DNA of 64,000 nucleotides from an uncultured Candidatus Saccharibacteria bacterium (GCA_964454845.1 CAYVVS010000001.1:87273-151272), one strand, 5' to 3'; shown: positions 6,068 to 60,847, counted from the first letter of the stretch. Program-made: numbers and translations. Notes: a model not told the origin generated them from the sequence alone.

Positions 6068-6099
6068 AGTGGATAACTCAAAAATGTTGTGGATAACTC
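6068..6099 (+). promoter_or_regulatory. Two direct repeats (A/T)GTGGATAACTC spaced 20 bp (DnaA-box-like, TTATCCACA on the other strand) in the nrdR/giant-gene divergent region
   Basis: AGTGGATAACTC at 6068-6079 and TGTGGATAACTC at 6088-6099. The second copy contains a perfect TGTGGATAA. Confidence 0.35.
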
Positions 6100-6202
6100 G
6101 TGCGCTAGAAACAGAAAACCCCTTACGCTTCCAGGTTGCATCAGATATAATAAACACAAGCTTTTTATTGAAGGCAGCTGTGCCTGTATGCAAACCAAAG
6201 AT

Positions 6203-9200
6203 ATGAGTAAAAAAACAATCGAACATTTAAGACACGCATCAAAAAAAGCACTGTCCGTACCGGGCCGGTGTTATGTTGGTGCATCTACAGCGCGGAGTCG
6301 CACAATTGGGTCCGCGCATGAGAATCTGCAACGAAGATATAAGTGGTATGAAAAGTGGCATGCGTGGAATTTTAAGAAAATAAACCACCAGCATGTGCAC
6401 TGGGCTGTGGCAGTGTTTTATACCTTGGCGCTTTCTGCCTTGCTGCTTTTGCGTGTGGGGGTAGTACGGGCAGCCGATTTTACTGATAGTTGGGATTTCA
6501 CGAGTATTGCGGCCTTCTTGCTTGATGGGGGCGTTGAGCAGAACGGATCTTCAATAAGCTTGAAACCCCAGGGCTATAGCTCGGACGGTAGTACAGCAGC
6601 TTTGTACCATTTTGATGAGGCTGCTGGCACGAGTATTGATGATAGCTCGAGCAATAATAATGACCTCACTACCACCGGGTTACCTGGCTTTGTTAGTGGT
6701 AATTTAAACAACGCTTTGAGTTTAGATGGCACTGGTCAATACGCAAGTGTTGCTGATTCTACATCATTATCTATGACTGGACAGATGACATTAGAGGGGT
6801 GGATTAAGCCAAGTAGTACTTTTAACAACAATTCTGATTTTTCACAAACCATAATTGATAAAGGGTCGTACCGTATGGGGCTAGATCGTACAAGCGGTCG
6901 AGCCTTCTTCGAAGTTGAGAGGAGTGGTACTCAATCCTGGACGAAACGCCTTGGTGATGAGCAGTCTGGTAGTTGGTCGTTTAACCATGGAGGTTTAGAT
7001 GCCATGGTTGCAAACGGTACTGATCTTTATGCGGGTACAGGCCTCTCTACAGGTGACGCTGAGGTTTGGAAGTGGAATGGTAGTAGCTGGACAAAGATAG
7101 CTGGCGATGGGATGAACAATAGCTGGCCCGCATCGACGTATGAAAAGGTTGCTAGTCTGGCGGTGAATGGGAGCTCCCTGTATGCCGGTCTTGGTAGCAC
7201 AGCTGGTGATGCCGAGATATGGACTTGCAATATGAACACAAATTGTACCTCTTGGACAAAGATAGGCGGCGATGGGAATGGTCCGGGGGTGGCATCTCAT
7301 ACGGCGATTGAATCGATGGCTGTATATGGAGGAAACCTCTATGTAGGTGGCACGTCCACATCGGCGGGTTCCGCGGATGTATGGAAGTATAATGGCGGAA
7401 CTTCCTGGACGCAGGTTGGTGGCGACGGTCTCAATAGCGGCTGGGCGGCCTCTACCTTTGAAGCAGTGAGTGCCCTATATAGTGATGGTACTTATTTATA
7501 TGCCGGTATTGGCGTAACGACTGCCGATGGAGAAGTATGGCGCTACAACGGTACAAGTTGGACTATGATTGGTGGCGATGGAGTAAATCTTGGTGGCGGT
7601 GCATCCTGGAATACTAACTACGAACGAGTGAGCTCAATAACATCTTACGGGGGGAATCTCTACGTTGGTTTAGGTGATAGTGCAAACGATGCTGAGGTGT
7701 GGCGACTAAGCGGCACAACTTGGTCTCAGATTGGTGGCGACGGCCTGAATAGCGGCTGGGCGGGGACAGCGGCGTTAACTCGAGTTTATTCTATGGTAAA
7801 TGACGGAACGAATCTCTATGTAGGCTTGGGTAGTGGATCTGGGGCGGCACAGGTTTGGAAATGGAACGGCAGTTCTTGGACGGGACTCTCGGTGGGGGGC
7901 GGTAATACTACGACTTCTTGGACATCAAGTATGATTGGTGCGATGGTTTGGGCGAATAGTAAACTCTACGCTGCGCCTTCGTCTAGTTCGAATTATGGCT
8001 CTGGAGTGTACGAATACAACGGCAGTGCCTGGAACCTCATAGGTGGCTGGTTTGTAAATGGCAGTTGGGGTGGGGCGGATATTACTCGTATTATGTCCTC
8101 TACAACTCATGACGGAAAACTTTATTATGGACTTGGCTTCGCGACCAACAATGCTCAGGTTTATGAATACGACGGCACTACCTCTCGTCGTGTAGGCGGC
8201 TCTGGTCTTAATGGTAGCTGGCCAGCTTGGGCTTACGAAGGTGTCTATTCTATGGCTTCCTACAAAGGGAATCTCTACGTTGGGCTAGGCTCAGGAGCTG
8301 GCGATGGCGAAGTTTGGCGTTGGGATGGCTCGAACTGGACTCAAGTTGGTGGCGATGGAGTTGGATCGAGCTGGAATAGCGGTGAAGCGGCTGTACTTTC
8401 AATGACAGTGTTTAACGGCAATCTATATATAGGCCTTGGTAGTGGAGCTTATCAGGGGGATCTCTGGCAATACAATGGTTCTACTTGGACGCTTGTTGCT
8501 GGCGAGCCTGCTAGTGGTATTGGCGGCCAGGTGAATGGATCGTGGAATGTGAACCCGCGTGGAGTAGAGACCATGGTTGTGTATAACGGCCAGCTCTGTG
8601 CCGGACTAGGCGGCAGTGGAGCTTGGGGAGAAGTTTGGTGCTGGAGTGGTTCAGGCAATTGGACAAAAATAGGTGGAGGCAATGCTGTTTCTGTGAACGG
8701 AAGTTGGTCGAGTTCAATTGCGGTTTTGGCGATGGCAACTTACCGTGATAAGTTATATGCCACGATTCGCACAAGTGGCCAAGCTGCTTCTATCTGGGAA
8801 TGGGATGGTTCAACTTGGACACAGGTAGCTGGCGCTGACCTCAATGGGAGCTGGAGTGACAGCACATATACCTGGGCGCGCACCATGGCAGTTTATAATG
8901 GCTACCTGTATGCAGGCACTGGTTATAGCGGCGCATCTAACCCAACTGGTGACGTTTGGCGTTGGGATGGCTCAACCTGGACACAGGCTGGTGGGGACGG
9001 AATAGCCAATAGCTGGACGACATCAGATCAGCGCGAAGAAGTGGGCGACCTCATTACTTACAAAGGGAAGCTATACGCGGCAACTGGGTATACGGGTAAT
9101 TCAGATGCGTTAGTGTATTCTTTTGGGGATAATGCATATACGGAGTCGGCAACTAGTTCTTTTGATACTAATTGGCATCATTTGGCAGGTGTTTATGATG

Positions 9201-12200
9201 GAACGAGTATAAAGATATATATTGATGGCGTTCAGGATGGGTCCGTAGCTGTAGGTGGTGTGTCGGTTGATAATGATAGGCCCTTGCTGATTGGTTCAGG
9301 GTTCGGTTCTTTGCAGGCGGGAGATAGTCGAAGGCGCTTTAACGGGCAGATTGATGAGGTGCGCATAAGTAGCACGGCACGCTCTAGTTTTACAGCAAAG
9401 CCGTATCTTAATACTGAACAGAGCGTGACATTATCGGATCCAATACGCACTAGTGGTATTGCGTCGTGGGTCGGATTTAATGCTAACGAGACAACAAATG
9501 GCGGGACAATTACGTATCGCTTGAGCAGTGATGATGGGGCGACATGGAAGTATTGGAACGGCGGTGCTTGGTCTACTTCGACAGAACTTAGCCAGTCGAG
9601 TAGTGCTACCGATGTTAATGCTCACATTGTCGATTTTCCAGTAACCTTCTCGGGCCTTCGTTGGCAGGCAGTCTTGAAGGGTGATGGCTCACAGAAAGTC
9701 ACGCTTGATTCGGTAGACATAACTTCAGATGCTGATAATGACGCGCCAATTGCGAATGCAACAAACTTACAGGCATTTACTAGTAATGGGGGTACTCAGC
9801 TCAATGATGCAGCCTGGACCAACTCTGCAACACCGTATTTTACTTGGGATGCTGCCTCTGATGCTGCAAGCGATATTTACGGGTACTGTCTCTACTTAGG
9901 GCAGTCAGCTTCTGATGATCCGGCGAGCAGCAAAGGGCTATTAGGAAGCTCTCCTGTAGATACGGGTGGGCACTGCCAATATGCTGTAAGCACTACATCG
10001 TTAGATCTGTCGCAGCCCGGAGTGTTGGCAACAGCCCTCAGTACGTCAGGCAGTAGCTATTATCTCAATGTGAAGGCGCTTGATGCTGCCGGAAATCTCT
10101 ATGGCTCATCTCAACAGTTTGAGTTTAAATTTGATAACACAGCACCATCGAATCCAAACTACATTAACGCTCCATCTCAGTTTGTGTCATCTAAGGAGGT
10201 AACTTTTACTTGGCCAACTACTGGGGGAGATGCCGCAGCTGACGCAAATTCTGGCGTGGTTGGTTTACAGTATAGAATTGGTGCAAATGGTACTTGGAGG
10301 GGTGACGGCACGGGAGGTTCTGGCAATCTTGCGAATGATGGCTCGTATACTACTCGTGACAACCCTGACTATGCCGACATTAATAATGGCAACAATGTGT
10401 TTTACTTCCGCACAATTGACGCTGCTGGTAATGTTAGTGCGAGCTATGTCTCGGCAACGTTACGGCTAAATACAGGTGCGCCAACAGGTCCACAAAATGT
10501 TACTGCTACACCGAGTACCAATACAAGCAACAACTTTGCTTTCTCTTGGGATCCACCCGCTAGTTATGCTGGTACTCCCGGTGCATTGACGTATTGTTAT
10601 ACCGTGAACACATTGCCAACCGAAAATACTTGTACGTTTACTGCAGCTGGAGTAACGAGTTTGTCTGCGGGAGCATATGCGACTCAGCCTGGTGAGAATA
10701 CTTTCTATGTTGTAGCTAAAGATAATAATATAAATTACGCTACTGCTGCGAGTACTACATTCACGGCGAACACCTCTGCACCAGGCATGCCACTCGATCT
10801 CGAGATTGCCGATATCTCCACTAAGGCTACTTCTTCGTGGAAGATCGCGCTGTCTTGGTCTGAGCCAACTGATACGGGAGCTGGTGTAGCGAGCTATAAA
10901 GTGTTCCGTTCGGCCACTGATTCTAATTACACGCAGATTGCCAGTACTGCTGGCGCAAGCTTTGTAGACTCTGGTCTGAGCCAGCAGACGTATTACTATA
11001 AGGTGAAAGCTTGTGATAGTGCCAACAACTGTGGCGCATTGAGCTCGAGCGTAAATAAATATCCGACTGGCCGCTTCACTACACCAGCTAATGCAACGTC
11101 AAACCCCGAGGTATCCAATGTAAGTACTCGCAAGGCTACCATCCGCTGGTCAACGGACAGAGTGAGTGACAGTAAGGTTTCAATCGGTACTGCTTCTGGA
11201 CAATATGAACCATTCCAGATAGCTAGCGGAGATCAAGTAACCGATCATACTATTCAGCTCACAAACCTCACGCCGGGAACCACGTATTTTGCTAAGGCTT
11301 CTTGGACTGATGAGGATGGGAATACTGGCAACTCTACAGAGTTCACATTCCAGACCGAACCTGCTCCATCTACTCAAGAAGTAAATACTACTCGAGTCGG
11401 CCTGAACTCTGCCCAGATCCGCTTAACTTCTGTGAGCGCTGCGCGCGTAGTTATTCAATATGGTAAGTCCGATAGCTTTGGTGGGGTAAAAGAGATTGCC
11501 ACATCGCTTTCTCGCTCTACCTACGATGTGGAACTTACAGGGCTGGATGATGACACAAAGTATTTCTACCGGCTCAACACCTACGACGCCGATGGCAATG
11601 AGTATGTAGGCAGTACTGTGTTAACTTTTACAACACCTGCGCGTCCTCGTATCTCTGATCTACGCTTTGAACCTGTGAGTGGCGAGCCAACTAGCACCCA
11701 AAAGGTTACTTGGAAAACAAATGTTGATACTACTTCTGGGGTGACATATGGCAAAGAAGGAACCAATGGCACTGATATACTGAATTCTACCCTCACTCGA
11801 GAGCATGAAATTATTATCCGAGGACTCGATGATAATAGTATTTATTTCTTAATTGCTCAGAGTCGCGATGTGGACGGTAATCTTGCGGCCTCTGATAGGC
11901 AAACTTTCCAAACTGCTCTGGATACACGACCTCCAACAATTAAAGATTTGGCCGTGGAGACAGTTGTGAAGGGCACAGGTAGTGATGCCCGTGGGCAGAT
12001 TATAGTGACTTGGACCACTGATGAGCCATCAACCAGTCAGGTTGCCTTTGGCGAAGGCACATCTTCAGAAAGTGTCACGAGTATGACCACTGAAGACGCC
12101 AATCTAACTACTGAACATGTTGTGATTGTGTCTGATCTTTCGACGGCACGCGTGTACAACATACAGGCTATCTCACGAGATAAGGCTCGCAATGAGGCTA

Positions 12201-12301
12201 AGTCTGAGAGTCAGTCGACGATCATTAACCGTGGTACAGATTCGATCCTCTCGATTATCGTCAATGTCCTCCAGCAAATATTCGGGTTTGAGGCAAACTA
12301 G
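6203..12301 (+). CDS. Giant surface protein 1 (about 2033 aa)
   Basis: Single long ORF, 2070 aa from the first ATG at 6089; the real start is probably 6188 or 6203. Domain order: basic N-terminus, one TM helix (WAVAVFYTLALSALLLL), LamG-like lectin, about 14 tandem 50-54-aa repeats (…LYxGxGxxxxDAEVWxWNGxxWTxIGGDG…), second LamG-like domain, many FN3-like units, conserved amphipathic C-terminal tail. Stop TAG at 12299-12301 is 1 nt before the next gene's ATG. Confidence 0.75.
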   Translation: MSKKTIEHLRHASKKALSVPGRCYVGASTARSRTIGSAHENLQRRYKWYEKWHAWNFKKINHQHVHWAVAVFYTLALSALLLLRVGVVRAADFTDSWDFTSIAAFLLDGGVEQNGSSISLKPQGYSSDGSTAALYHFDEAAGTSIDDSSSNNNDLTTTGLPGFVSGNLNNALSLDGTGQYASVADSTSLSMTGQMTLEGWIKPSSTFNNNSDFSQTIIDKGSYRMGLDRTSGRAFFEVERSGTQSWTKRLGDEQSGSWSFNHGGLDAMVANGTDLYAGTGLSTGDAEVWKWNGSSWTKIAGDGMNNSWPASTYEKVASLAVNGSSLYAGLGSTAGDAEIWTCNMNTNCTSWTKIGGDGNGPGVASHTAIESMAVYGGNLYVGGTSTSAGSADVWKYNGGTSWTQVGGDGLNSGWAASTFEAVSALYSDGTYLYAGIGVTTADGEVWRYNGTSWTMIGGDGVNLGGGASWNTNYERVSSITSYGGNLYVGLGDSANDAEVWRLSGTTWSQIGGDGLNSGWAGTAALTRVYSMVNDGTNLYVGLGSGSGAAQVWKWNGSSWTGLSVGGGNTTTSWTSSMIGAMVWANSKLYAAPSSSSNYGSGVYEYNGSAWNLIGGWFVNGSWGGADITRIMSSTTHDGKLYYGLGFATNNAQVYEYDGTTSRRVGGSGLNGSWPAWAYEGVYSMASYKGNLYVGLGSGAGDGEVWRWDGSNWTQVGGDGVGSSWNSGEAAVLSMTVFNGNLYIGLGSGAYQGDLWQYNGSTWTLVAGEPASGIGGQVNGSWNVNPRGVETMVVYNGQLCAGLGGSGAWGEVWCWSGSGNWTKIGGGNAVSVNGSWSSSIAVLAMATYRDKLYATIRTSGQAASIWEWDGSTWTQVAGADLNGSWSDSTYTWARTMAVYNGYLYAGTGYSGASNPTGDVWRWDGSTWTQAGGDGIANSWTTSDQREEVGDLITYKGKLYAATGYTGNSDALVYSFGDNAYTESATSSFDTNWHHLAGVYDGTSIKIYIDGVQDGSVAVGGVSVDNDRPLLIGSGFGSLQAGDSRRRFNGQIDEVRISSTARSSFTAKPYLNTEQSVTLSDPIRTSGIASWVGFNANETTNGGTITYRLSSDDGATWKYWNGGAWSTSTELSQSSSATDVNAHIVDFPVTFSGLRWQAVLKGDGSQKVTLDSVDITSDADNDAPIANATNLQAFTSNGGTQLNDAAWTNSATPYFTWDAASDAASDIYGYCLYLGQSASDDPASSKGLLGSSPVDTGGHCQYAVSTTSLDLSQPGVLATALSTSGSSYYLNVKALDAAGNLYGSSQQFEFKFDNTAPSNPNYINAPSQFVSSKEVTFTWPTTGGDAAADANSGVVGLQYRIGANGTWRGDGTGGSGNLANDGSYTTRDNPDYADINNGNNVFYFRTIDAAGNVSASYVSATLRLNTGAPTGPQNVTATPSTNTSNNFAFSWDPPASYAGTPGALTYCYTVNTLPTENTCTFTAAGVTSLSAGAYATQPGENTFYVVAKDNNINYATAASTTFTANTSAPGMPLDLEIADISTKATSSWKIALSWSEPTDTGAGVASYKVFRSATDSNYTQIASTAGASFVDSGLSQQTYYYKVKACDSANNCGALSSSVNKYPTGRFTTPANATSNPEVSNVSTRKATIRWSTDRVSDSKVSIGTASGQYEPFQIASGDQVTDHTIQLTNLTPGTTYFAKASWTDEDGNTGNSTEFTFQTEPAPSTQEVNTTRVGLNSAQIRLTSVSAARVVIQYGKSDSFGGVKEIATSLSRSTYDVELTGLDDDTKYFYRLNTYDADGNEYVGSTVLTFTTPARPRISDLRFEPVSGEPTSTQKVTWKTNVDTTSGVTYGKEGTNGTDILNSTLTREHEIIIRGLDDNSIYFLIAQSRDVDGNLAASDRQTFQTALDTRPPTIKDLAVETVVKGTGSDARGQIIVTWTTDEPSTSQVAFGEGTSSESVTSMTTEDANLTTEHVVIVSDLSTARVYNIQAISRDKARNEAKSESQSTIINRGTDSILSIIVNVLQQIFGFEAN

Positions 12302-12302
12302 C

Positions 12303-13142
12303 ATGGGTATGATTGATTTTGCCAGCATAAATAAGGACTTTGTTCTTCCGAATGAAACCATTCATGTATTAAAAGATGTGAATTTTTCTATACCTGAAGA
12401 GTCTTTTACGATTATGTATGGTCCTTCTGGCAGTGGTAAATCAACACTCTTAAATGTAATGGTTGGCTTAGAGGAGCCCACAACTGGCAAGGTGTCTCTT
12501 GCTGGCCAAGATTTATATTCTATGAACGCAGATCAGAGAGCTAATCATCGAGCACGATTGGTTGGCATGGTGTATCAATCGAATTATTGGGTGAATTCTT
12601 TAAGTGTTATCGAGAATGTTGCGATGCCACTGTATTTAGCGGGAGTGTCTCGCCGCGAGGCAGCTAAAGAAGCAATGGTAAGTTTAGAGAAGGTAGGTAT
12701 GCAGCAGTATGCTAAATCACGCCCGACAGTACTCTCTGGCGGTCAACAACAGCGAGTATCAATTGCTCGGGCGTTAGCTGGAGACCCTACTTTGATTGTC
12801 GCAGACGAACCAACTGGTAACTTAGACACAAAGAATGGCGATATGATTATGAATATGTTGTATGAATTACGACATAGAATGGGTAAAACGGTAGTGATGG
12901 TAACTCATAATCTTGGTTACTTGCCTCTGAGCGATCATCGTTTGCAGCTAAAGGACGGCATGGTGATTGCTGAAGAGGGTGAGTACGGGCTAAATAAAGA
13001 TGATAAGTCGAAGCTTCTTGAGGATTTTCAGAAAAGTATTAATGTTTTGTCTAGTGAGGAAGCATCAAGCACAAAAAATGTTGGTAAAAATACAGCAAAA
13101 CCTGCAGGTATAGATGGCATCTCGAAAGGAGGCAAAAAGTGA
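12303..13142 (+). CDS. ABC transporter ATP-binding protein, MacB/LolD/FtsE family (cassette 1)
   Basis: Walker A GPSGSGKST, Q-loop, signature LSGGQQQRV, Walker B LIVADEPT, H-loop. Start ATG 1 nt after the giant-1 stop. C-terminal ~60-aa Lys-rich tail. Confidence 0.85.
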   Translation: MGMIDFASINKDFVLPNETIHVLKDVNFSIPEESFTIMYGPSGSGKSTLLNVMVGLEEPTTGKVSLAGQDLYSMNADQRANHRARLVGMVYQSNYWVNSLSVIENVAMPLYLAGVSRREAAKEAMVSLEKVGMQQYAKSRPTVLSGGQQQRVSIARALAGDPTLIVADEPTGNLDTKNGDMIMNMLYELRHRMGKTVVMVTHNLGYLPLSDHRLQLKDGMVIAEEGEYGLNKDDKSKLLEDFQKSINVLSSEEASSTKNVGKNTAKPAGIDGISKGGKK

Positions 13143-14410
13143 GTTCTGCGCCCTTGTCACCGAAGAGCTCAGCAGCTCCGCAAGCCTCAGGAGCTCATGC
13201 TCGGACTGATCGCTCACGCTACATTAAGCGTTCAATAATTTGGTACGTTGCGCTTAAAAATCTGTTTGCTAAGAAGCTTAGGTCATCGTTGACCATTGGT
13301 GGCGTGGTAATTGGTATTGGGGCAATTGTGTTTTTGGTGTCATTGGGGCTTGGTCTGCAAAAAGTGGTTACCGAACAAGTAGTTGATTCAAAGTCTGTCC
13401 GTACTGTTGACATTACTTCCCCTAAGCCAAAGACCGTCCGTCTCGATGATGATGCTTTGCAGAAATTTAAGGCGATTAATCATGTAGATACTTTGGCGAC
13501 GAATTATTCAGCTGCCGGAAAAGTAGTATTTCAATCCGCAAATCTTGATTCCGTGGTAAATGGCCCAGACCCTACGTACACAGAACTTAATAATTTTAAG
13601 CGACTGGCTGGTGATACTTCTAAGATCACGGGGCTCGATCAGGTGGTTATCAATGAGGCGCTCGTAAATACGTTTGGTGTGAAAGACCCACAGAAAATGA
13701 TTGGGCAGCAGATGACAGTAAAGATCCCTAAGCTAGAAACAGCCGAAGGGACAGAAGAAGTTGAGCAGACCGCGAAAGTGGTGGCAGTGGTACGAACTGG
13801 TTCTGGTGCGGAAGTTTTCTTAAGCCCGCAAGTGTTTCAGCGCGCCCAAGCACGTAGCTATAGTCAGGTAAAGCTCTTAACTGATGTGCAAGAGAATGTG
13901 CCGGCCGTCCGACGTTCGATAGAAAGCCAGGGCTTTACGACAACTTCACCAGTAGATACGTTGGAGCAGATTAACCAAGTCTTCTCAATTCTTACGATTC
14001 TTCTAGCGGGTTTTGGGGCGATCGGTATGGTGATTGCAGTTTTGGGCATGATCAACACTCTTACCATCTCACTTTTGGAGCGCACGAAAGAGATTGGACT
14101 TTTAATTTCTCTCGGAGCACGTAAGAAGGACGTACGTAGACTGTTTGTGATTGAGGCCTTATTACTTTCTTTGATTGGTGGCATCGTTGGAATCCTTGGT
14201 GCTTGGCTTTTAGGTAAGGGGATAAATACGGCAATTGCCAATCTTGCTCGCTCCCGTGGTGTAGAAGATGCTTTTTCCTTCTTCTTTATCCCGTTCTGGC
14301 TGATTCTCGCAATCTTTGCATTTACGGCCACAATTGGTTTTCTCGTGGCATTTTTCCCGGCCCGACGAGCGAGTCGCATTAGCCCGATTGATGCGCTTCG
14401 ACACGACTAA
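13139..14410 (+). CDS. ABC permease, MacB/FtsX family (4 TM, large extracytoplasmic domain) (cassette 1)
   Basis: TM1, then a ~220-aa MacB-type extracytoplasmic domain, then the FtsX 3-TM bundle (…LTISLLERTKEIGLL…). GTG start overlaps the ATPase stop (GTGA). SD AAGGAGG 6 nt upstream. Confidence 0.8.
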   Translation: MSSAPLSPKSSAAPQASGAHARTDRSRYIKRSIIWYVALKNLFAKKLRSSLTIGGVVIGIGAIVFLVSLGLGLQKVVTEQVVDSKSVRTVDITSPKPKTVRLDDDALQKFKAINHVDTLATNYSAAGKVVFQSANLDSVVNGPDPTYTELNNFKRLAGDTSKITGLDQVVINEALVNTFGVKDPQKMIGQQMTVKIPKLETAEGTEEVEQTAKVVAVVRTGSGAEVFLSPQVFQRAQARSYSQVKLLTDVQENVPAVRRSIESQGFTTTSPVDTLEQINQVFSILTILLAGFGAIGMVIAVLGMINTLTISLLERTKEIGLLISLGARKKDVRRLFVIEALLLSLIGGIVGILGAWLLGKGINTAIANLARSRGVEDAFSFFFIPFWLILAIFAFTATIGFLVAFFPARRASRISPIDALRHD

Positions 14411-14504
14411 ATCTGTTCGTAATATGTTTGCTTTTTAAGATATAAATGTTTATAGTGAGTGAGTGTTAGACTCACTTCTTACATCAGTTGAAGAATACCG
14501 TGTT

Positions 14505-15707: not shown

Positions 15708-15755
15708 AGCTTGAAAAAAAGCGCTTTTTCAGATATGATAACCCCGCTTTTAGAT

Positions 15756-15832: not shown

Positions 15833-15849
15833 TTTGAATAGTTTATACT

Positions 15850-16030: not shown

Positions 16031-16040
16031 GGAGATAAAG

Positions 16041-27178: not shown

Positions 27179-27238
27179 GCAAAAGTTCCAGTGTACTGGG
27201 GTTTTTGCAGATAACTTTATCCTGGTACAATAGAGAAA

Positions 27239-54322: not shown

Positions 54323-57300
54323 ATGCGCAAAAAAGTCATGACAAAATCCAAAAAGCAAATCCCACAGAAATCTACTCGTTTAGTTGACGCAGTTCGTCAG
54401 TCGAGTGTTGCTGTGCGTAAAAACTCTCAATCGTTTGAGGCTATTCAACACAAGACGAGGCTCGGTGTAGTTTACATTGCAGTAAAGGACTTTGTTCGAC
54501 GTGCGCCTGAGAATCTTAAGGTGGGTGTGAGCAGAGCGGGGAGAAGCAGGCAGCGCATACTTGGAAAAATAGCTGCTAGGCTACCAAAGATAGCTCTTCC
54601 ACAATTTCAAGCTTCCAACAGGTTAAAAAGCGTTGTAGCCAGTACATCATTAGTTGTCATGATGGTACTGATGTTCTTTAATATGGGGGTCCATAATGTT
54701 GCGCGCGCTTTTGATACGCTCAATCAATCCGATTGGAGTGGCGGACAAGGTATAAGTCCGGTTAATCAGTATGAGGAGAAAGATGGCAATGTTGTAACTG
54801 CTACAGCGGGTCAGTTGAGCTTGAGTGGTGGAGCTTCTGCCTGGTGCAGTACCGCAAACTGCAATACGAATTGGACACGACGCAAGGTTCTCGTACCACG
54901 TGGCGGCATAAATGACACGGATATGACTTATGCGCAAGTTCAATTGACTGTTGAATATGAAAATGAAATGAAGTCTGATTTTAGCGACTTACGTTTTACG
55001 AATCGGTATAGCAATCAAGATGTTCCGTATTGGGTTATGCGTAAGACAGACGGTGTATCTGCGACTGTCTTTTTGAAGATACAGCTTTCAAGTGGTGGCG
55101 TGGATAGTCATACGTATATGTACTACGGAAATGCGGCGGCCACCTCTCTATCGTCTAAGGGAGGCGTGTTTGATCTGTATGACTCTTACGACACGGGTAG
55201 CCTTCAGGGTAACTATTTTGATATCGATGGTGCTGATGGGGAGATTGATGGACTTGGAGGTAAGCTAACCCGGCTTGATTATGGTATTAGTCACCCCGGC
55301 CCATTTTCTCGAGATCGCACTCGAGTATACGAAGCCGACCTTAAGTTAGATCTCTCTTCATATACATGTGGCGACTCTGCCGGTGTGGGATCTATAGAAA
55401 TAGGCTTCCAGGGTGGTACGGCAGAGCTCTACTTTGATATGCCTGCAAATTGCGATAGCAATGGCAAATATTGGAGGGTTTCTGGTGCTACTAACGGGAG
55501 TGAGTCGGTAAATTTTCCAGACTCTACTGCCTATCATTTTACCTCGAATATATATGTGCGCCTGCGGTTAGTGGCGTATCAGGATGGCGGGCATGCTTAT
55601 TTCTTCAGTCGGGATAATGGAGAAACATATACGGCTTTCCCCGGTGTTAATACCGGTATAAATAGTGATAATTTTCCTACGGAATATTACTTAAGCAATG
55701 GCAATGCTGTAACGACATATCGTCATGTGGTTGCGTACCAGGGACTACTGGATAGAAGTACGTCGCTTAATTTTGATGCATCTGTTGAAGAATATGTAAA
55801 TGGCAGAGTCGGTGGATTTACGAGTGTTGAGTATGACTTAGGCTCTGACAGGACGTTCTTTGGAGATCTAAATATTACCTACACCGGTACGGGTGCTGTC
55901 GGAGTGTACATATCGGGGTCTGACACCCCAGGAGGTACACTTGATTCAATCTCTATGTATGTTAGTTGTCCGTTCGTTAAAAATACCACAGCTATTTCTT
56001 CGGATTGTCTACCCGCAGGGAGTCGTTACGTGAGGTACTATTTGCTGCTTTCTTCTGATGCTGCAAATAGCCTCGTTATTCAGGATGTATCACTTGAATA
56101 CTCAATTGATGTAGACAGTCCAACGATAGTCAGTGGTGTGCAGACGCGTAGAACGAGTAATAATGCGGTAATCTCGACCGGCTGGATAAATGAGACACCA
56201 AAATTTAGTTGGAATGCCTCTGTCGATGGTGTAGATGGTTCGGGCATTGCTGGATATTGTTTGTATTTTGGTACTGATAGCGGCGCTGATCTAAGTACAA
56301 CCCAAGGTTTGTTACCTACAACAAGCCCATATGATACTGGAGGATTATGCCAATACGCCATACAGGCCACGTCGCTAGACTTGTCGCAACTAACATTACA
56401 GAGTTCGCTGACTACAAATACACAATACCACCTAAAAATACAGCCATTTGATAATGCTGGGAATCTGGCGACCGCAACAACGAGTGCTCTTGGCTATGAT
56501 ACTGATACTCCTGGACCATATACGACTGCGTTTGGGCCTAACGGGTATGTCAATTCGCCAATACAGCCAGTAAACTGGGCAAAAGACGCACCAGCGATGG
56601 TAGTTGACGATGGTGGTTCCGGGGTTGCGGGCATTAAATATTGTGTCTTTAGCTACGCGACTGGTGATGGGTGTAGTCTATTTGGTGGTTCGCCATCTGA
56701 TTTTCCTTGGTATGGACCGGCTCGCACCAATAGCCTTCCAAACGATCCTATAGATGTATATAGTTTTTCGAGCGGTGGTTTTAACCTTGTAGACGATGAT
56801 TTGGCCCGTATGACCGATGAAGGGCTTAATGGTGTTGTTTTGCTCCTGATTGATAACGCGGGTAACGTTGCGCAATTTGGTTCAGGTGGAGCTCCTGTAA
56901 TTATTAATGTTACTCAGCAGCCTCCATCAGCTCCGCAAAATTTACAGGTAAGTCCTAGTAGTAATAATGAAAACGCGTTCTCATTCACATGGGCAGCTCC
57001 CGCGACCGCATCAGGCCCAACTGGTCAAGTGGATTATTGTTGGACGGTAAACGTATCCATAGCTTCCGATGGCAGCAATTGTAATTGGACCGGTCAAGGT
57101 ATTACACAGCTCGCACAGGGAGCTTACGCCACGCAACAGGGTAGCAATACACTGTATTTGATGGCCAAGGATCAGTCGCAGAATTTTTCTAATGCCAATG
57201 TGACGAGTGTGAATTTCACAGCAACAACTGTGGCGCCCGGGCCACCTCAGAACCTCGAGCTTTCAGATGTGTCAATTCGCGCTACGAGTAGCTGGAAGAT

Positions 57301-58771
57301 TGCGCTTAGCTGGAGTGCCCCGCAGCTTCCCGGTTCCGGAATTGCGAGCTATAAGATTTATCGCTCAACCAATAATGTGAACTTTACAGAAGTAGGAACA
57401 ACATCAAGTACGAATCTAAGCTTTATCGATTCTGGCCTCTCGCAGACTGACTACTATTATTATGTGAAAGCTTGTGATGATGCCGATAGTTGCAGTGTGG
57501 CAAGTAATACGGAGACCAAGTATCCAAACGGGCGTTATACTACCCCGGCTCGTTTGACTGACGATACGGATCAACCAAAGATTAGGGATATTGGTACGCG
57601 TAAAGCTACTATTTATTGGTTTACGGATAGGGCAAGTGATTCAAAGATTGCCTATGGCACTGCACCTGGTCAGTACTTCCCAGAAGAGGTCGGGAATTCA
57701 ACACAGGATTCATCTCATGTTGTAAATCTTACAAACTTAGAGCCAGGTAAGACGTATTACTATGTGGCTCGTTGGACTGACGAAGATGGGAATACGGGCA
57801 TTTCCCAGGAGAGGGCGTTTACAACACTGCCGGCACCAACTGTGCGGGAAGTTTCAGCTTCAAACCTTACAATAAGCTCTGCTGCTGTTAATTTTACAAC
57901 TGAAAATGCATACAAGGCTAATGTATACTTCGGTACCAGCGATGCTTTTGGGGGCGTGAAGAGCATAAATACATCAATTTCTTCATCAAGCTACAGCTTG
58001 AGCTTGAATGATTTGCAAGATGGTCAAAAATATTTCTACAAAATAAGCACCGTAGATGCGGATGGCTATGAATATCAGGGTGATATATACAGTTTTACTA
58101 CTCCAGCTCGTCCAAAAATTACGAATTTGCGCTTTGAGACGGTAGAGGGTGAGCCGAGCAGTACCCAAAAAATTGTATGGACAACCAATGTGGCCACTAC
58201 AAGTGAAGTGGTGTATGGGTTGGTTGGGGGAGAGCAATCTGAAGCTGTGAGCTCCACTCTGGTGACGGAACACGAAGTGATAGTTCGTGGTTTGGCGGAC
58301 AACGCTGATTATGAGTTGGTTGCGCGTTCCCGCGACGCTGCCGGTAACCTCGCGGTTTCTGATAAACAGTTCTTTCAAACAGCCGAAGATACACGCGCGC
58401 CAAAAGTCTCAGAATTTAAGGTTGAGACGGATATCCGTGGAACTGGTGGAGAGGCACGTGGGCAGATAATTGTATCGTGGCGCACAGATGAGCCGGCTAC
58501 TAGCCAAGTGGCGTTTGCTAAGGGGCGTACAACAGAGCTCAGTAACCGTTCCTCGCAGGATACACGCTTAACTACTGAGCATGTCGTGGTCGTGTCTGAC
58601 CTTACTACTTCAAGTATCTATCAAGTGCAGGCAGTGTCGGCTGATAAGGCCGGTAACGAGTCGTTTTCCGATGCTCAAACAGCAATTATTGGTCGCGGTA
58701 CTGAAAATATCTTCAGTATCATCTTTAATGCGCTGCAAGCTATCTTTGGCTTTGGGGATACGAATTTATGA
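54323..58771 (+). CDS. Giant surface protein 2 (1482 aa; paralog of giant 1 C-terminal module)
   Basis: Basic N-terminal ~100 aa and one TM helix (SLVVMMVLMFF). Distinct beta-sandwich N-terminal domain (…DLRFTNRYSNQDVPYWV…). From about aa 630, a ~850-aa FN3-rich module collinear and similar to the C-terminal module of giant 1, same C-terminal tail (…IFSIIFNALQAIFGFGDTNL). Stop overlaps the next ATG. Start may be 54338. Confidence 0.8.
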   Translation: MRKKVMTKSKKQIPQKSTRLVDAVRQSSVAVRKNSQSFEAIQHKTRLGVVYIAVKDFVRRAPENLKVGVSRAGRSRQRILGKIAARLPKIALPQFQASNRLKSVVASTSLVVMMVLMFFNMGVHNVARAFDTLNQSDWSGGQGISPVNQYEEKDGNVVTATAGQLSLSGGASAWCSTANCNTNWTRRKVLVPRGGINDTDMTYAQVQLTVEYENEMKSDFSDLRFTNRYSNQDVPYWVMRKTDGVSATVFLKIQLSSGGVDSHTYMYYGNAAATSLSSKGGVFDLYDSYDTGSLQGNYFDIDGADGEIDGLGGKLTRLDYGISHPGPFSRDRTRVYEADLKLDLSSYTCGDSAGVGSIEIGFQGGTAELYFDMPANCDSNGKYWRVSGATNGSESVNFPDSTAYHFTSNIYVRLRLVAYQDGGHAYFFSRDNGETYTAFPGVNTGINSDNFPTEYYLSNGNAVTTYRHVVAYQGLLDRSTSLNFDASVEEYVNGRVGGFTSVEYDLGSDRTFFGDLNITYTGTGAVGVYISGSDTPGGTLDSISMYVSCPFVKNTTAISSDCLPAGSRYVRYYLLLSSDAANSLVIQDVSLEYSIDVDSPTIVSGVQTRRTSNNAVISTGWINETPKFSWNASVDGVDGSGIAGYCLYFGTDSGADLSTTQGLLPTTSPYDTGGLCQYAIQATSLDLSQLTLQSSLTTNTQYHLKIQPFDNAGNLATATTSALGYDTDTPGPYTTAFGPNGYVNSPIQPVNWAKDAPAMVVDDGGSGVAGIKYCVFSYATGDGCSLFGGSPSDFPWYGPARTNSLPNDPIDVYSFSSGGFNLVDDDLARMTDEGLNGVVLLLIDNAGNVAQFGSGGAPVIINVTQQPPSAPQNLQVSPSSNNENAFSFTWAAPATASGPTGQVDYCWTVNVSIASDGSNCNWTGQGITQLAQGAYATQQGSNTLYLMAKDQSQNFSNANVTSVNFTATTVAPGPPQNLELSDVSIRATSSWKIALSWSAPQLPGSGIASYKIYRSTNNVNFTEVGTTSSTNLSFIDSGLSQTDYYYYVKACDDADSCSVASNTETKYPNGRYTTPARLTDDTDQPKIRDIGTRKATIYWFTDRASDSKIAYGTAPGQYFPEEVGNSTQDSSHVVNLTNLEPGKTYYYVARWTDEDGNTGISQERAFTTLPAPTVREVSASNLTISSAAVNFTTENAYKANVYFGTSDAFGGVKSINTSISSSSYSLSLNDLQDGQKYFYKISTVDADGYEYQGDIYSFTTPARPKITNLRFETVEGEPSSTQKIVWTTNVATTSEVVYGLVGGEQSEAVSSTLVTEHEVIVRGLADNADYELVARSRDAAGNLAVSDKQFFQTAEDTRAPKVSEFKVETDIRGTGGEARGQIIVSWRTDEPATSQVAFAKGRTTELSNRSSQDTRLTTEHVVVVSDLTTSSIYQVQAVSADKAGNESFSDAQTAIIGRGTENIFSIIFNALQAIFGFGDTNL

Positions 58772-59571
58772 GTCAGTCTCTTGTTTCTTTCCGCGATGTC
58801 TCGCGTGATTTTCGTGCTATAGATGGTACGGTGAGTGTTTTGAAGGATATAAATTTTGAGGTAGAACCTGGTAGTTTTACTATTATTTATGGACCTTCTG
58901 GTAGTGGTAAGACAACAATTTTGAATATGATTTTGGGTCTTTTGCCGCCAACCAAGGGGGATGTCGTGGTGGCCGGGCAAAGCTTGTATGATCTCAATCA
59001 AGATGGTCGTGCAAAGTTTAGGGCCGCACATTATGGTGTGGTGAGCCAAGTGAATAACTGGGTCCTCAGTATGAATGTGCAGGAGAATGTTGCCCTGCCG
59101 TTATATCTTTCGGGTACTCCACGTCATGAAGCACTTAAGAAGGCTGCGGCTAGCATTGAGCGTGTTGGGCTTGCGAAGTATATGCGCTACAATCCGGCAG
59201 TGTTGTCAATTGGTCAACAACAGCGCATTTCTATGGCGCGAGCTACCGTAAAAACACCGCAACTTTTGATAGCTGACGAGCCGACCGGCAACCTTGATAC
59301 CACGAATGGCGACATGATTATGCAGCTGATGACCAGCTTTAGAAATCATGAAAATACTACAGTGATTTTGGTTACACACAATCTTGATTATCTTTCTTTA
59401 AGTAGCCATAGATTATTCTTAAAAGATGGCGTGCTCTCAATTGATGAGGGCGGCTACCAATCCGAAGAAGAGCGTCGTCGCATGCTGATGACAAGCTTCT
59501 TGGAGGTGAATAAGGCGGCTGAAATACAACCAGCAAAAGTTCCTGTAAAGAGAGGTGGTAAACGTGGCTGA
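58768..59571 (+). CDS. ABC transporter ATP-binding protein, MacB/LolD/FtsE family (cassette 2)
   Basis: Walker A GPSGSGKTT, LSIGQQQRIS signature, Walker B LLIADEPT. Paralog of 12303-13142. ATG overlaps the giant-2 stop (ATGA). Confidence 0.85.
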   Translation: MSQSLVSFRDVSRDFRAIDGTVSVLKDINFEVEPGSFTIIYGPSGSGKTTILNMILGLLPPTKGDVVVAGQSLYDLNQDGRAKFRAAHYGVVSQVNNWVLSMNVQENVALPLYLSGTPRHEALKKAAASIERVGLAKYMRYNPAVLSIGQQQRISMARATVKTPQLLIADEPTGNLDTTNGDMIMQLMTSFRNHENTTVILVTHNLDYLSLSSHRLFLKDGVLSIDEGGYQSEEERRRMLMTSFLEVNKAAEIQPAKVPVKRGGKRG

Positions 59572-60847
59572 ACGTAAGCGCATGAATGACACGGTGTCCG
59601 AAAAAGTGCTTGCACCGCGTGTGCGTAAACACCATCATTCTGAGCAAGAAGGGGTGATTGCGACGTCGATTTTGGTACGAATGGCTGCTCAAAATCTTTT
59701 CTTTAAAAAACTTCGCACCACGCTGACTATTTTGGGGGTAGTTATCGGAATTGGCGCAGTTGTATTCTTGCTCTCATTTGGTTATGGCCTTCAGGACCTC
59801 GTAAGCCGCCAGGTAGTCGGGTCAAAATCGGTTAAGAGTATTGATGTGACTAAGCCGCGTTCAGCAGCTATAAAGTTTGATGGCGATAATATTACCCGCA
59901 TGAAAAATATTGGTTCGGTTGAGGAAGTAGCGCGGGTTTATACCGAGGCGGCAAAGGTAAAATCTGGCGGCTCGCAAGTTGATTCTGTGGTCTTTGGGGT
60001 TGATGCAGAATATCTAGATCTCAGTTCAGTTCGCGTTGTTACAGGAAAGTCGTTGCTGGCTGGCGGTGGGACCGATGAGGCACTCGTGAATACTTCGCTG
60101 GCTAAGGCTGTAGGCTTACCGCAGGGTGATCAGGCGCTTGGTAAGGTGATTAGCCTAAACCTGGATATCGTGCAGGCCGATGGGGTTAAAAAATCGATTC
60201 AAAAAGATGTAAAAGTGATTGGTCTGGTGGAAGGTAACGCAAGTGCTGAAGCGTTTGTTCGTAGTCAGCTGTTTATCGAGAATGGTGTCCAAGATGCGAG
60301 CCAGGTTAAGATACTTACGACTGACCGCAGCACAGTCGGGCAAGTGCGAAAAGAAGTTGAAAGCATTGGGTTTGCCACCGCTTCGCCGCTCGACACGCTG
60401 GACCAGATTTCACAAGTCTTTGGTCTCTTACAGATGATCTTTCTTGGGTTTGGCGGCATTGGCATGGTGATTGCTATTTTGGGTATGTTTAACACGCTCA
60501 CCATCTCACTCTTGGAACGCACGCGAGAAATAGGTTTACTGATTGAGTTTGGTGCTCGCCAGAGAGATATAAAACGACTTTTCATTATCGAATCGTTGAT
60601 GCTTTCTGTATTAGGGGGCTTCATCGGGCTCGTGAGCGCCTTTATGCTTGGTAGGTTTGCGGATATAGCGATAAGCAGCTTTGCGCGCAGTCGTGGCGTT
60701 CAAGAGGCAGTCTCAGCGTTTATGGTAACCCCTCAGTTGGCAATAACTACACTAGTCTTAAGCGCATTGTTTGGTCTCATCGTTGTATATTTCCCAGCCC
60801 GACGAGCATCTCGAATTGATCCGATTGACGCGTTGAGGTACGAATAG
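59564..60847 (+). CDS. ABC permease, MacB/FtsX family (cassette 2)
   Basis: Paralog of 13139-14410, same TM1 / extracytoplasmic domain / FtsX organisation. Start ambiguous: GTG 59555, GTG 59564 (best SD spacing) or ATG 59582. Confidence 0.75.
   Translation: MAERKRMNDTVSEKVLAPRVRKHHHSEQEGVIATSILVRMAAQNLFFKKLRTTLTILGVVIGIGAVVFLLSFGYGLQDLVSRQVVGSKSVKSIDVTKPRSAAIKFDGDNITRMKNIGSVEEVARVYTEAAKVKSGGSQVDSVVFGVDAEYLDLSSVRVVTGKSLLAGGGTDEALVNTSLAKAVGLPQGDQALGKVISLNLDIVQADGVKKSIQKDVKVIGLVEGNASAEAFVRSQLFIENGVQDASQVKILTTDRSTVGQVRKEVESIGFATASPLDTLDQISQVFGLLQMIFLGFGGIGMVIAILGMFNTLTISLLERTREIGLLIEFGARQRDIKRLFIIESLMLSVLGGFIGLVSAFMLGRFADIAISSFARSRGVQEAVSAFMVTPQLAITTLVLSALFGLIVVYFPARRASRIDPIDALRYE

Follow-up and report, generated by a model that had tools for sequence, protein, structure and literature searches.

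Type VII ABC transporters turn cytoplasmic ATP hydrolysis into the motion of an extracytoplasmic domain, and translocation of proteins across the membrane is not known for this class. By analogy, the best model for the working of the cassette described here, in which the gene of a giant secreted protein precedes those of an ATPase and a permease, is FtsEX (partners PcsB, CwlO, EnvC and RipC). Like the cassette, FtsEX combines an FtsE-like ATPase with a four-TM, FtsX-fold permease bearing an ectodomain, and its partner is exported by Sec and regulated rather than transported. FtsEX partners use a coiled coil, whereas the cassette giants end in a short amphipathic helix; the cassette also differs in having a 1,500-2,000-aa lectin/FN3 partner without a hydrolase domain and a permease ectodomain of the MacB_PCD type. 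The architecture of the permease (MacB_PCD + FtsX) is that of MacAB-TolC, Spr0693-0695, YknXYZ and YtrEF. Unlike these MacB-like pumps, the cassette has no adaptor gene and is tied to a giant, not to small-molecule resistance genes. LolCDE and LolDF share the fold of the cassette ABC; their target is the hydrophobic anchor by which a protein exported through Sec is fixed to the outside of the membrane. In contrast, the cassette giants have no lipobox, their A-x-A-like sites lacking a Cys at +1, and no acceptor chaperone is encoded.

Giant modular adhesins encoded beside a dedicated ABC, as in the cassette, are also found among type 1 secretion systems (T1SS), for instance LapA/LapBCE, SiiE and MpIBP. 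The uncleaved C-terminal signal of these adhesins, with its amphipathic helix, can be likened to the end of the cassette giants. In a T1SS, the ABC is a type IV exporter (ABC_membrane) that works with a membrane-fusion protein and a pore in the outer membrane, and the substrates have RTX repeats but no Sec signals; the cassette instead has a MacB/FtsX-type ABC and Sec-type signal peptides.

A large part of the diversity of bacteria belongs to the Patescibacteria (CPR), whose cultivated representatives are attached to other cells. These organisms are not expected to have an outer membrane, and, type IV pili apart, little is known of their attachment and host choice. Very large surface proteins are reportedly noted in the Vampirococcus genome paper (PMC8080830). 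In Strigamonas, CPR proteins of >1,500 aa with signal peptides/TM segments and FN3, concanavalin A or integrin-like domains have been proposed to serve in host recognition (PMC13059738). The relevant sections of that study contain no conserved C-module, tail motif or obligatory MacB-type ABC partner, and no earlier description of the three-gene unit was found in the literature searched.

The window analysed is a stretch of 64,000 nucleotides from the ultra-small genome of an uncultured Candidatus Saccharibacteria bacterium (GCA_964454845.1 CAYVVS010000001.1:87273-151272). It carries two cassettes, A at 6203-14410 and B at 54323-60847 (Table 1). A cassette is defined as a Sec-signal giant with a variable head, a C-module and a tail ending in ...LxxxFG(F/W), followed immediately and on the same strand by an ATPase and a MacB_PCD/FtsX permease; the definition is met by both window cassettes, 26 loci and 8/8 informative contigs.

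Table 1. Features of the two cassettes and their neighbours, in positions of the window.
Feature	Coordinates	Strand	Remarks
Giant A	6203..12301	+	ORF list; Pfam Laminin_G_3, fn3, Pur_ac_phosph_N; secreted modular surface protein
Putative Sec signal peptide, giant A	6203..6472	+	Residues 1-90; basic N-region, hydrophobic segment, VRA/AD
LamG jelly roll (concanavalin-like), N half	6695..6988	+	~residues 165-262; Laminin_G_3 profile 1-70
14 WxWNGxxWT repeats, ~52 aa each	7010..9127	+	~residues 270-975; repeat scan
LamG, C half	9128..9385	+	Residues 976-1061; Laminin_G_3 profile 65-146
Constant C-module, giant A	9656..12298	+	Residues 1152-2032; common to giant B
C-terminal amphipathic helix, FGF tail	12245..12283	+	ILSIIVNVLQQIF, then GFEAN and stop
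ABC ATPase A	12303..13142	+	279 aa; LolD/FtsE/MacB type; Pfam ABC_tran
Type VII ABC permease A	13139..14410	+	423 aa; Pfam MacB_PCD + FtsX; 4 TM segments
DinB-like protein, 3' of cassette A	14463-15707		IMS/IMS_C domains
Giant B	54323..58771	+	1482 aa; signal peptide, DUF2341-type head, C-module, tail ENIFSIIFNALQAIFGF
Hypervariable head of giant B	54920..56122	+	~residues 200-600; DUF2341 at 54977-55207
ABC ATPase B	58768..59571	+	267 aa; signature motif LSIGQ
Type VII ABC permease B	59555..60847	+	430 aa from GTG 59555
Lineage-specific neighbour ("fourth gene")	60850..63093	+	Signal peptide, NIDO, FN3-like, CarboxypepD_reg, C-terminal TM

The genes of each cassette are closely joined. In cassette A the ATPase ATG lies 1 nt past the giant's TAG (12299-12301), and the ATPase stop and permease start overlap in GTGA (13139-13142). 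In cassette B, giant and ATPase overlap in ATGA (58768-71), and ATPase and permease overlap at 59555-59571, with GTG 59564 and ATG 59582 as alternative permease starts. A reading made earlier from the sequence alone had given the coordinates, gene order and both junctions of cassette A (TAG then ATG 12303; GTGA), and all of these hold. Its size of 2033 aa for the giant is too large by one: counted from ATG 6203 the protein has 2032 aa. The start itself is ambiguous; ATG 6188 would give 2037 aa, as in the public gene call, and the earliest possible start is GTG 6089. That reading's labels "second copy", "giant 1/2" and "cassette 1" were inconsistent; the copy at 6203-14410 is the one with the LamG/propeller giant and dinB behind it. 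The fourth gene that it named is a lineage-specific neighbour, not a conserved cassette part: its only counterpart is in L028 (87% identity), and other lineages carry different downstream genes. Its product has two TM segments, residues 8-32 and 713-736.

The ATPase and permease form a type VII ABC of the MacB/FtsX/LolC fold, both membership criteria being met. Two Pfam domains of permease A score above their cut-offs, MacB_PCD (residues 49-263, 70.5 bits) and FtsX (residues 292-416, 75.9 bits). By hydropathy the protein has four TM segments, the first two of which flank the MacB periplasmic core domain. The best sequence matches of this permease in the PDB are YtrF (9o9x), MacB (5gko), Spr0695 (5xu1) and LolE/F. 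ATPase A matches Pfam ABC_tran with 113.6 bits, and its translation carries GPSGSGKST, LSGGQQQR, ADEPTGNLD and VTHN, so that Walker A/B, signature and H-loop are intact. Its best NCBIfam models are LolD, FtsE, YbbA and MacB, with LolD, FtsE and MacB all below cut-off.

The cassette does not satisfy the criteria of the described systems. FtsEX orthology is ruled out by 35.5 bits for FtsX_Gneg (cut-off 255), 28.6 for FtsX_Gpos (225) and 189 for FtsE (264.85), and Pfam detects no hydrolase or coiled-coil domain in the giants. LolCDE orthology is not supported by the 66.3 bits for the lolCE model TIGR02212, against a cut-off of 362. The criterion for a MacAB-type tripartite pump fails since the adaptor gene is missing: no membrane-fusion (HlyD/MacA-like) adaptor ORF is present in either window cassette or in the loci examined, and the giant is the sole conserved neighbour. 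The criteria for a type 1 secretion RTX adhesin do not agree with the FtsX-type permease and the N-terminal hydrophobic signal segments of the giants, in which Pfam finds no RTX or HemolysinCabind repeats.

Cassettes A and B are ancient paralogs whose syntenic orthologs are distinct (L029, L031, L039 and L042 for giant A; L026 and L028 for giant B). By BLASTP, the ATPases are 52% identical over 240 aa (E=2e-90) and the permeases 44% over 405 aa (E=4e-121). The giants give a single collinear alignment, residues 1152-2029 of A against 570-1477 of B, with 45% identity over 927 columns and 700 bits. Their N-terminal modules have no BLAST match to each other, and the heads are of different Pfam types, Laminin_G_3 in A and DUF2341 in B. 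The sequence-only reading had proposed paralogous ATPases and permeases, a collinear C-terminal ~850 aa shared by the giants, and unrelated N-terminal halves; all three claims hold. The motifs it quoted are present, with one small slip: a permease motif given as common to both copies is LTISLLERTKEIGLLI in A and LTISLLERTREIGLLI in B. A recent in-genome duplication as the origin of the pair is rejected, each cassette having separate syntenic orthologs.

All giants are built alike, with a Sec-type signal peptide followed by a variable head, a conserved Ig/FN3 stalk and a C-terminal amphipathic helix with an FGF end. The N-terminus of giant A has a single TM-like segment by hydropathy (residues 64-93), and the putative signal peptide is followed by DFTDSWDF, a conserved mature N-terminal motif. 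The signal peptide of giant B spans residues 1-129 with a putative site ARA/FD. This signal layout and mature N-terminal motif are present in 29/29 full-length giants; cleavage itself is inferred. The C-module, residues 570-1482 in giant B, runs from Ig/FN3-like domains with conserved Cys pairs through four FN3 domains of the Pur_ac_phosph_N type to the tail. An AF2 model of the last 420 aa of giant A contains the four FN3 domains at pLDDT 90, and its top Foldseek matches are fibronectin FN3 arrays.

The tail comprises ~17 residues (...LxxxFGF) with a hydrophobic moment of 0.46. It is kept in all 31 giants from the loci, plus 44 database homologs, and 108 of the 150 best cluster representatives carry it at their very C-terminal end; its conservation spans close relatives down to 30% identity. 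In the AF2 model it is an unpacked helix of pLDDT ~55 beside the high-confidence FN3 domains, and this free, low-confidence prediction suggests an element awaiting a partner. The tail is proposed to be a docking or sorting element, an inference for which there are no interaction data. The giants do not fit the criteria of sortase-, SLH- or CTERM-sorted proteins: an LPXTG-like motif is absent from the last 80 aa of every giant, NCBIfam/Pfam searches return no PEP-, GlyGly- or MYXO-CTERM sorting signal, no SLH match and none of the other known anchors, and no basic cluster lies behind the tail.

The three-gene module is conserved in the CPR. The ATPase lies behind the giant in 28/28 public loci from Moraniibacteriota, Saccharimonadota, Parcubacteria and other CPR, and the permease follows in all 26 that continue beyond the ATPase (L005 and L014 stop inside it). 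Nine further contigs were looked up, chosen across the permease tree (homologs at 46-96% identity) and the tail family (one tail-variant giant); one ended at the giant's stop and was uninformative, and the other eight all have the order giant, ATPase, permease. ATPase and permease are spaced by -4 to +4 nt in 21 of 25 scorable junctions. For giant and ATPase the spacing is -4 to +30 nt in the five Saccharibacteria loci of cassette-A/B type that were checked, and +57 nt in L015. Translational coupling of giant and ATPase is not universal, because in Moraniibacteriota-type loci the gap may reach 60-400 nt. In L015, L038 and L044, one ABC is common to two tandem giants. The syntenic setting is housekeeping-like: NrdR, giant, ABC, ThrRS, MiaA, MurT. 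The module is not universal. In the annotation tables of S. epibionticum, a cultured and genetically tractable Saccharibacterium, no protein carries the hallmark Pfam domain of the stalk, and the MacB-like pairs of this organism lack an upstream giant.

A neighbour-joining (NJ) tree unites the giant-linked permeases in a clade of their own and places the generic MacB pair of L022 (25% identity) as the outgroup. The permeases P1 and P2 each have relatives closer to them than they are to each other. The sequence-only reading would have been refuted had the ABC pairs been closer to transporters not associated with giants, and this did not occur because every closer relative sampled is giant-linked. 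The permease phylogeny it suggested as a check returned a separate clade.

At least seven Pfam head types sit on the same C-module across genomes: LamG(-propeller), DUF2341, Kelch, RCC1, FG-GAP, discoidin and BclA_C/TNF-like. Divergence is much faster in the heads than in the stalk and the ABC genes. Between cassette B and its closest relative, L028, the giant heads are 17-37% identical per 100-aa block (29% overall), whereas the stalks are 81-95% and the ABC proteins 94-97% identical; dN is 0.96 in the head, against 0.04-0.07 in the stalk and 0.02-0.03 in the ABC genes. For giant A, dN is 0.07-0.11 in the head and 0.012-0.018 at the stalk end. Positive selection on the heads is not demonstrated: where an estimate of dS is possible, dN/dS lies well under 1, and dS itself approaches saturation. 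The earlier proposal of a modular, diversifying surface apparatus, with swapped distal heads on a constant stalk and tail and a private ABC, rather than a single adhesin, is supported by the linkage, the permease clade and the head types. Fast divergence of the heads is seen; their distal position is not shown.

These features suggest that the giant is a modular adhesin and that a dedicated type VII ABC holds or actuates its tail, a reading that could equally well prove right or wrong. The giant would be exported by Sec, by way of its basic n-region, hydrophobic core and A-x-A site. The mature protein would begin with the short conserved motif, followed by a variable ligand-binding head, predicted to be LamG with a nested propeller in copy A and a DUF2341 jelly roll in copy B, and then by the constant Ig/FN3 rod ending in the amphipathic helix. 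The ABC dimer would grip this helix and so tether the giant to the cell, and would either actuate the giant or catalyze its placement or release, while the exchangeable heads would recognize surface ligands of host cells or particles. Adhesion as the function is inferred, and so is a physical or mechanical coupling of tail and ABC, which rests on conserved gene order alone. A bolder reading, less likely than not, takes the FGF helix as a new sorting or anchoring signal whose partner is a type VII ABC and not a sortase, exosortase or T1SS, making the giant an ATP-powered adhesin. If true, the machine could hold, tension, retract or release giant host-binding proteins whose heads are interchangeable, and would be a lineage-wide attachment apparatus setting host range in CPR epibionts.

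Other explanations deserve weighing. It is possible, though less likely, that the ABC acts in sorting or release as Lol does, and is neither anchor nor motor: the Sec-exported giant would remain lodged in the outer leaflet, either by its amphipathic tail or by a signal anchor that escapes cleavage, and the ABC would use ATP to extract that segment, passing the giant to the wall or S-layer or releasing it. The fold class is that of LolCDE, the sharing of one ABC by two tandem giants (L015, L038, L044) suits a catalytic role, and the tail lacks the length and hydrophobicity of a stable TM anchor. However, the cassette has no conserved downstream acceptor, the NCBIfam LolC/E scores are far under cut-off, and the tight giant-ATPase coupling of the Saccharibacteria type hints at matched dosage, which better fits a stable complex than the ratio of an enzyme to its substrate.

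Less plausibly, the giant may be mainly a structural, S-layer-like envelope component or spacer whose assembly the ABC aids. The long constant FN3 rod, the wide occurrence of the module in CPR, its housekeeping-like syntenic position and a dN/dS well below 1 would agree with this unlikely view. Against it, lectin, propeller, discoidin and TNF-like binding folds are swapped between relatives, and head B is almost unrecognizable where the ABC proteins are 94-97% identical; close coupling to a machine of a low-abundance type is also inferred to disfavor an abundant lattice protein. Least credible of all is an ordinary efflux or immunity pump that merely shares an operon with the giant. The source annotation does read "antimicrobial peptide transport system permease", and the family holds many drug and peptide pumps. 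Yet a tail-bearing giant is linked in every case examined, down to ~30% identity and in varied neighborhoods, the generic MacB-like pair found elsewhere in the same genomes is far more distant, and the membrane-fusion protein is missing.

Because a swappable head is joined to a constant stalk and tail and to an ATP-driven machine, the modular adhesin is a good and testable candidate for CPR attachment and host specificity. The module is easy to recognize and spans Saccharimonadota, Moraniibacteriota and Parcubacteria-group records, and host or ligand might be predicted from the head type. The pair of tail and ABC may represent a new principle of surface display or mechanotransmission, and would extend the partners of type VII ABCs from wall hydrolases and lipoproteins to giant adhesins.

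The head of giant A had been read as LamG, 14 repeats and a second LamG, and this is partly upheld: the repeats are real, and LamG is one split domain. Alone, the C and N halves score 66.8 and 25.8 bits against Laminin_G_3; when the repeats are deleted in silico, one full-length match appears (profile 1-146/151, 94.7 bits). Modelled by AF2 (pLDDT 84, pTM 0.77), the head shows 14 blades of four strands each, and its top Foldseek matches are the tandem double seven-bladed propellers of Utp21, Elp2 and GH74 xyloglucanase. The head is thus predicted to be a single LamG with a loop holding a nested tandem pair of seven-bladed beta-propellers. A parallel exists in T1SS adhesins, where ligand-binding domains reportedly project from "split" companion domains (Graham et al. 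2024, cited in PMC13059738). The propeller repeats of head A also occur in proteins with phage-tail Pfam domains.

The two cassettes belong to a conserved three-gene unit in which a Sec-targeted giant protein with a variable N-terminal head and a constant C-terminal tail is encoded together with a type VII ABC transporter. Pairwise alignment bears out the sequence-only reading, which had taken the cassettes for paralogs with collinear C-terminal parts, related ABC pairs and unrelated N-terminal halves. Giants A and B align collinearly over 927 columns (residues 1152-2029 of A against 570-1477 of B; 45% identity, 700 bits), their ATPases are 52% and their permeases 44% identical, and their N-terminal modules have no match to each other. 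The same reading had placed the junctions of cassette A, which held exactly: 1 base separates the stop TAG of the giant (12299-12301) from the ATG of the ATPase (12303), and ATPase and permease overlap in GTGA at 13139-13142. The motifs it quoted also held apart from one K/R difference, its length of 2033 aa for giant A was off by 1 residue, and its numbering of the giants as 1 and 2 was muddled.

Cassette B sits 40 kb downstream of cassette A, and tblastn finds no third copy and no further ABC ATPase in the 64 kb. For giant A the start codon is ambiguous: three candidates (GTG 6089, ATG 6188 and ATG 6203) share a frame, and no clear Shine-Dalgarno sequence is found at them (6089-6205). Rfam and tRNA scans gave no match within either cassette. 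Promoter and terminator scans of the cassettes were left unused because their counts were at or below shuffle expectation, with one slight excess (terminator-like sites in cassette B, 12 against 8.1 expected).

Coordinates of the two cassettes and of other features in the window
Feature	Position	Strand	Remarks
Giant A	6203-12301	+	2032 aa from ATG 6203
Giant A, alternative in-frame starts	ATG 6188; GTG 6089		2037 aa from ATG 6188 (public gene call)
ABC ATPase A	12303-13142		co-directional with giant A
Permease A	13139-14410		co-directional with giant A and ATPase A
DinB-like polymerase	14463-15707		next after permease A
6S RNA	24262-24430		
RNase P RNA	26793-27180		
Polysaccharide locus	27239-31186		Bac_transf, GT1, DUF4012
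tmRNA	40614-41016		
S8 subtilase	44455-46212	-	start overlaps the stop of the 46209-54158 gene by 4 nt
NHL-propeller/HATPase_c protein	46209-54158	-	2649 aa; N-terminal TM, several NHL six-bladed propellers, FN3, TM-helix block, C-terminal HATPase_c
Giant B	54323-58771	+	1482 aa
ATPase B	58768-59571		ATGA overlap with giant B
Permease B	59555-60847		
Fourth gene	60850-63093		747 aa; secreted, TM-anchored; NIDO + FN3-like + CarboxypepD_reg + C-terminal TM

Both giants start with a long basic region, a single hydrophobic segment and an A-x-A-like site (VRA/AD in giant A, ARA/FD in giant B), and in all relatives a short motif, D-x-x-D-x-W-(N/D)-F or SDWSGG, follows. This region is inferred to be a Sec signal peptide, with cleavage probable. 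Head A had been described as LamG, 14 repeats and a further LamG, which fails as stated: a single LamG is split by the repeats. The Pfam profile Laminin_G_3 is matched over positions 1-70 before the repeats and 65-146 after them, and deleting the repeats in silico yields one full match (1-146 of 151, 94.7 bits). The repeats, ~52 aa each, are folded by AF2 into 14 four-stranded blades (pLDDT 84, pTM 0.77), and the best PDB matches of this model are the tandem double seven-bladed propellers of Utp21, Elp2, Gemin5, Aip1 and GH74 xyloglucanase. Because the in-silico fusion restores LamG and the propeller model finds such matches, head A is predicted to be a LamG jelly roll, one loop of which accommodates the double propeller, an arrangement reminiscent of the "split domains" in the ligand-binding regions of RTX adhesins (reference cited in PMC13059738). 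Head B contains DUF2341 (Pfam).

The stalk of the constant C-terminal module (C-module) consists of Ig/FN3-like domains with conserved Cys pairs, ending in four FN3 domains modelled with pLDDT > 90. The last ~20 residues form an amphipathic helix (...DSILSIIVNVLQQIFGFEAN in giant A and ...ENIFSIIFNALQAIFGFGDTNL in giant B) with a hydrophobic moment of 0.43-0.46, which AF2 renders as a helix of pLDDT ~55 unpacked against the rod. This tail is too polar and too short to serve as a transmembrane anchor, and it holds neither LPXTG nor a known CTERM signal.

The permease has four TM segments and an FtsX domain, and a MacB periplasmic core domain lies between its TM1 and TM2; the solved structures nearest to it by sequence are YtrF, MacB, Spr0695 and LolE/LolF. 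Among family models the ATPase fits LolD, FtsE and MacB best, and it retains intact catalytic motifs. Scores fall far short of every NCBIfam equivalog cut-off, and the pair is therefore a type VII ABC that is not an ortholog of FtsEX, LolCDE or MacB; no membrane-fusion protein gene is encoded with it. ABCs of type VII work by mechanotransmission, their substrates or partners being located on the outer face of the membrane, and MacB, FtsEX and LolCDE structures are not known to contain a transmembrane channel. ATPase A has the canonical ABC signature LSGGQ, in place of which ATPase B has LSIGQ. Non-Saccharibacteria permeases of 710-870 aa at three public loci (L001, 13207-15336; L016, 13661-16216; L019, 13579-16164) carry an N-terminal extension and a 300-450-aa ectodomain insertion without similarity to the propeller repeats.

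The linkage of giant and ABC extends well beyond this genome. When species-representative genomes were scanned with the shared C-module as query, 28 loci were returned, every one in Patescibacteria-type MAGs (Moraniibacteriota, Saccharimonadota and the Parcubacteria group, together with records labelled "Bdellovibrionales" or "TM6" that hold the identical cassette type). The ATPase comes after the giant in all 28, and a MacB/FtsX permease is next wherever the sequence continues. Homologs of permease A are numerous (45-96% identity), and eight of them spread over the tree all lie in the order giant, ATPase, permease, an order found again with a giant that has a variant "FGW" tail. The largest tail-bearing giant (P0336) stands outside the linkage count, its contig stopping at its stop codon. 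Searched with a profile, 1.84 billion cluster representatives yielded 2,925 matches at E <= 1e-30; of the best 150, whose lengths reach 6,321 aa, 108 have the tail motif at the extreme C-terminus. Homologs recovered with the tail alignment were all fragments of <= 511 aa under the names "hypothetical" or "FN3 domain-containing"; they served for the MSA and are unsuited to reading architectures. One FN3 protein from outside CPR (P0199) was excluded from the family, having no ABC neighbour and only generic FN3 similarity.

The conserved core is an ATPase-permease pair with one or two giants, and the genes that follow vary by lineage. The fourth gene of the sequence-only reading is a lineage-specific neighbour outside this core; its counterpart is seen only in the closest relative, at 87% (L028, 7748-10000). 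Elsewhere the permease is followed by CBS and then a separate CHASE4-PAS sensor in Moraniibacteriota-type loci, by DUF2207 in L019 and an ORF of similar size in L023, and by an MFS gene in L015. Three loci carry a tandem pair of tail-bearing giants before a single ATPase-permease pair (L015, 3372-12712; L038, 1-7136; L044, 2-9385), so one ABC can serve more than one giant. At L041, 5 kb downstream from a cassette with a discoidin head, another FN3/Pur_ac_phosph_N giant begins (14674-17293), this one with an FG-GAP head, and several cassettes per genome occur elsewhere as well. Serine recombinases adjoin cassettes in two genomes (L038, 9747-16623; L040, 80-1552), the former also having Replic_Relax, a reverse transcriptase (RVT_1) and HicA beside the cassette; some cassettes may lie next to mobile elements.

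In an NJ tree of the permeases, a generic MacB-like pair taken from one of the cassette-bearing genomes is a distant outgroup (25% identity). Moraniibacteriota-type cassettes contribute a single clade of long permeases (~640-870 aa), and permeases A and B fall in different old sub-clades of the large radiation made up of the short Saccharibacteria-type permeases. The window cassettes are therefore ancient paralogs. By its own criterion, the sequence-only reading would be refuted if each ABC were nearer to transporters not linked to a giant; this was checked and is not the case, because every sampled closer relative of permeases A and B is giant-linked. Recent tandem duplication or gene conversion between the two is rejected, because the copies share only 44-52% protein identity, against 79-97% between each copy and its own orthologs. 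Orthologs of cassette A are found at L029, L031 and L042, which share synteny with the window (NrdR, giant, ABC, [DinB], ThrRS, MiaA, MurT, GatD), and those of cassette B at L026 and L028, with ABC genes 82-97% identical. Giant A resembles Moraniibacteriota giants over its whole length (head 38-43%, stalk 44-46%), as closely as it does the stalk of giant B. A mosaic history of cassette A can be tentatively inferred, because its giant has this resemblance while its ABC is of Saccharibacteria type in the NJ tree.

At least seven head types are found on the common C-module: LamG-propeller, DUF2341, multi-Kelch, RCC1, FG-GAP, F5/8 discoidin and BclA_C/TNF-like. Between cassette B and L028, the ATPases are 97% and the permeases 94% identical, and the stalk end of the giant is 81-95% identical per 100-aa block (88-92% over residues 901-1482), against 17-37% per block in head residues 200-600 (29% over 211-600). 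In this comparison dN drops from 0.96 in the head to 0.04-0.07 in the stalk and 0.02-0.03 in the ABC genes, a pattern that could reflect recombinational replacement or extreme diversification. Between cassette A and L042, the head evolves at 4-6 times the rate of the stalk end, with dN/dS of 0.04-0.11. Only relative dN is reported, dS being saturated or near-saturated even between the closest relatives, and because of this near saturation positive selection on the heads is neither shown nor excluded. Diversification of the DGR type was considered, without anything in its favour: no RT domain is present in those window proteins that were run through Pfam, and the variable part is the whole N-terminal module, unlike a short C-terminal variable region.

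Propeller repeats also occur (~40% identity, covering 22-36% of the query) in proteins that bear phage-tail Pfam domains (PF13550, PF23666), and in actinobacterial IPT/TIG or DUF11 proteins with PF18986 (together P0268, P0271, P0273, P0275, P0279, P0282-P0286, P0296 and P0305). The sharing with phage-tail proteins is compatible with a role in cell-surface recognition. P0265 (760 aa, encoded on a contig of 453 kb) runs directly from WxWNG propeller repeats into the last three TM helices of an FtsX permease. It is not counted as a natural fusion, because the join falls at a common "LG" motif and the signal peptide and first TM segments are missing; a giant-permease deletion or misassembly is probable.

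As the most likely reading, a working model with three steps can be proposed. The giant would be exported via Sec, its C-terminal amphipathic helix would be captured by the extracytoplasmic or TM1-TM2 region of the ABC, and ATP hydrolysis would serve to keep hold of the giant, actuate it, place it or release it, with the heads binding ligands of hosts or particles. As a whole, this model could as readily prove wrong as right, and its last step deserves less confidence than the rest. The cassette might, with a real though less than even chance, embody a new principle of sorting, anchoring or actuation.

The main rival is that the ABC acts as a Lol-like catalytic sorting or release factor, a role that fits the cassettes with two giants to a single ABC. 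Less likely than this is that the giant is a structural component of the envelope. An unrelated efflux pump that merely shares the operon also ranks below the Lol-like role, and the universal giant-ABC linkage speaks against it.

CPR bacteria are known in a general way to have very large surface proteins of FN3 and lectin type (PMC13059738; PMC8080830), and the cassette combines known kinds, a modular giant adhesin and an extracytoplasmic partner's type VII ABC. Three of its features, namely the conserved C-module, the FGF helix at the terminus and the obligatory MacB-type ABC partner, were not found in the searchable literature, and database names ("hypothetical", "LamG domain-containing", "ABC transporter permease") mention none of them. 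The cultured and genetically tractable S. epibionticum appears to lack the module: the tables of the Cell 2023 Tn-seq paper list no PF16656-bearing protein, and its MacB pairs are without a giant. SEML1_0890 and SEML1_0891 in the same paper are small, unrelated proteins. With the module apparently absent there, no experimental data exist and no phenotype can be borrowed.

The setting of the cassettes is ordinary core chromosome of a Saccharimonadia genome. The 2649-aa protein with NHL propellers is encoded divergently from giant B and, judged from sequence alone, resembles a giant sensor histidine kinase.
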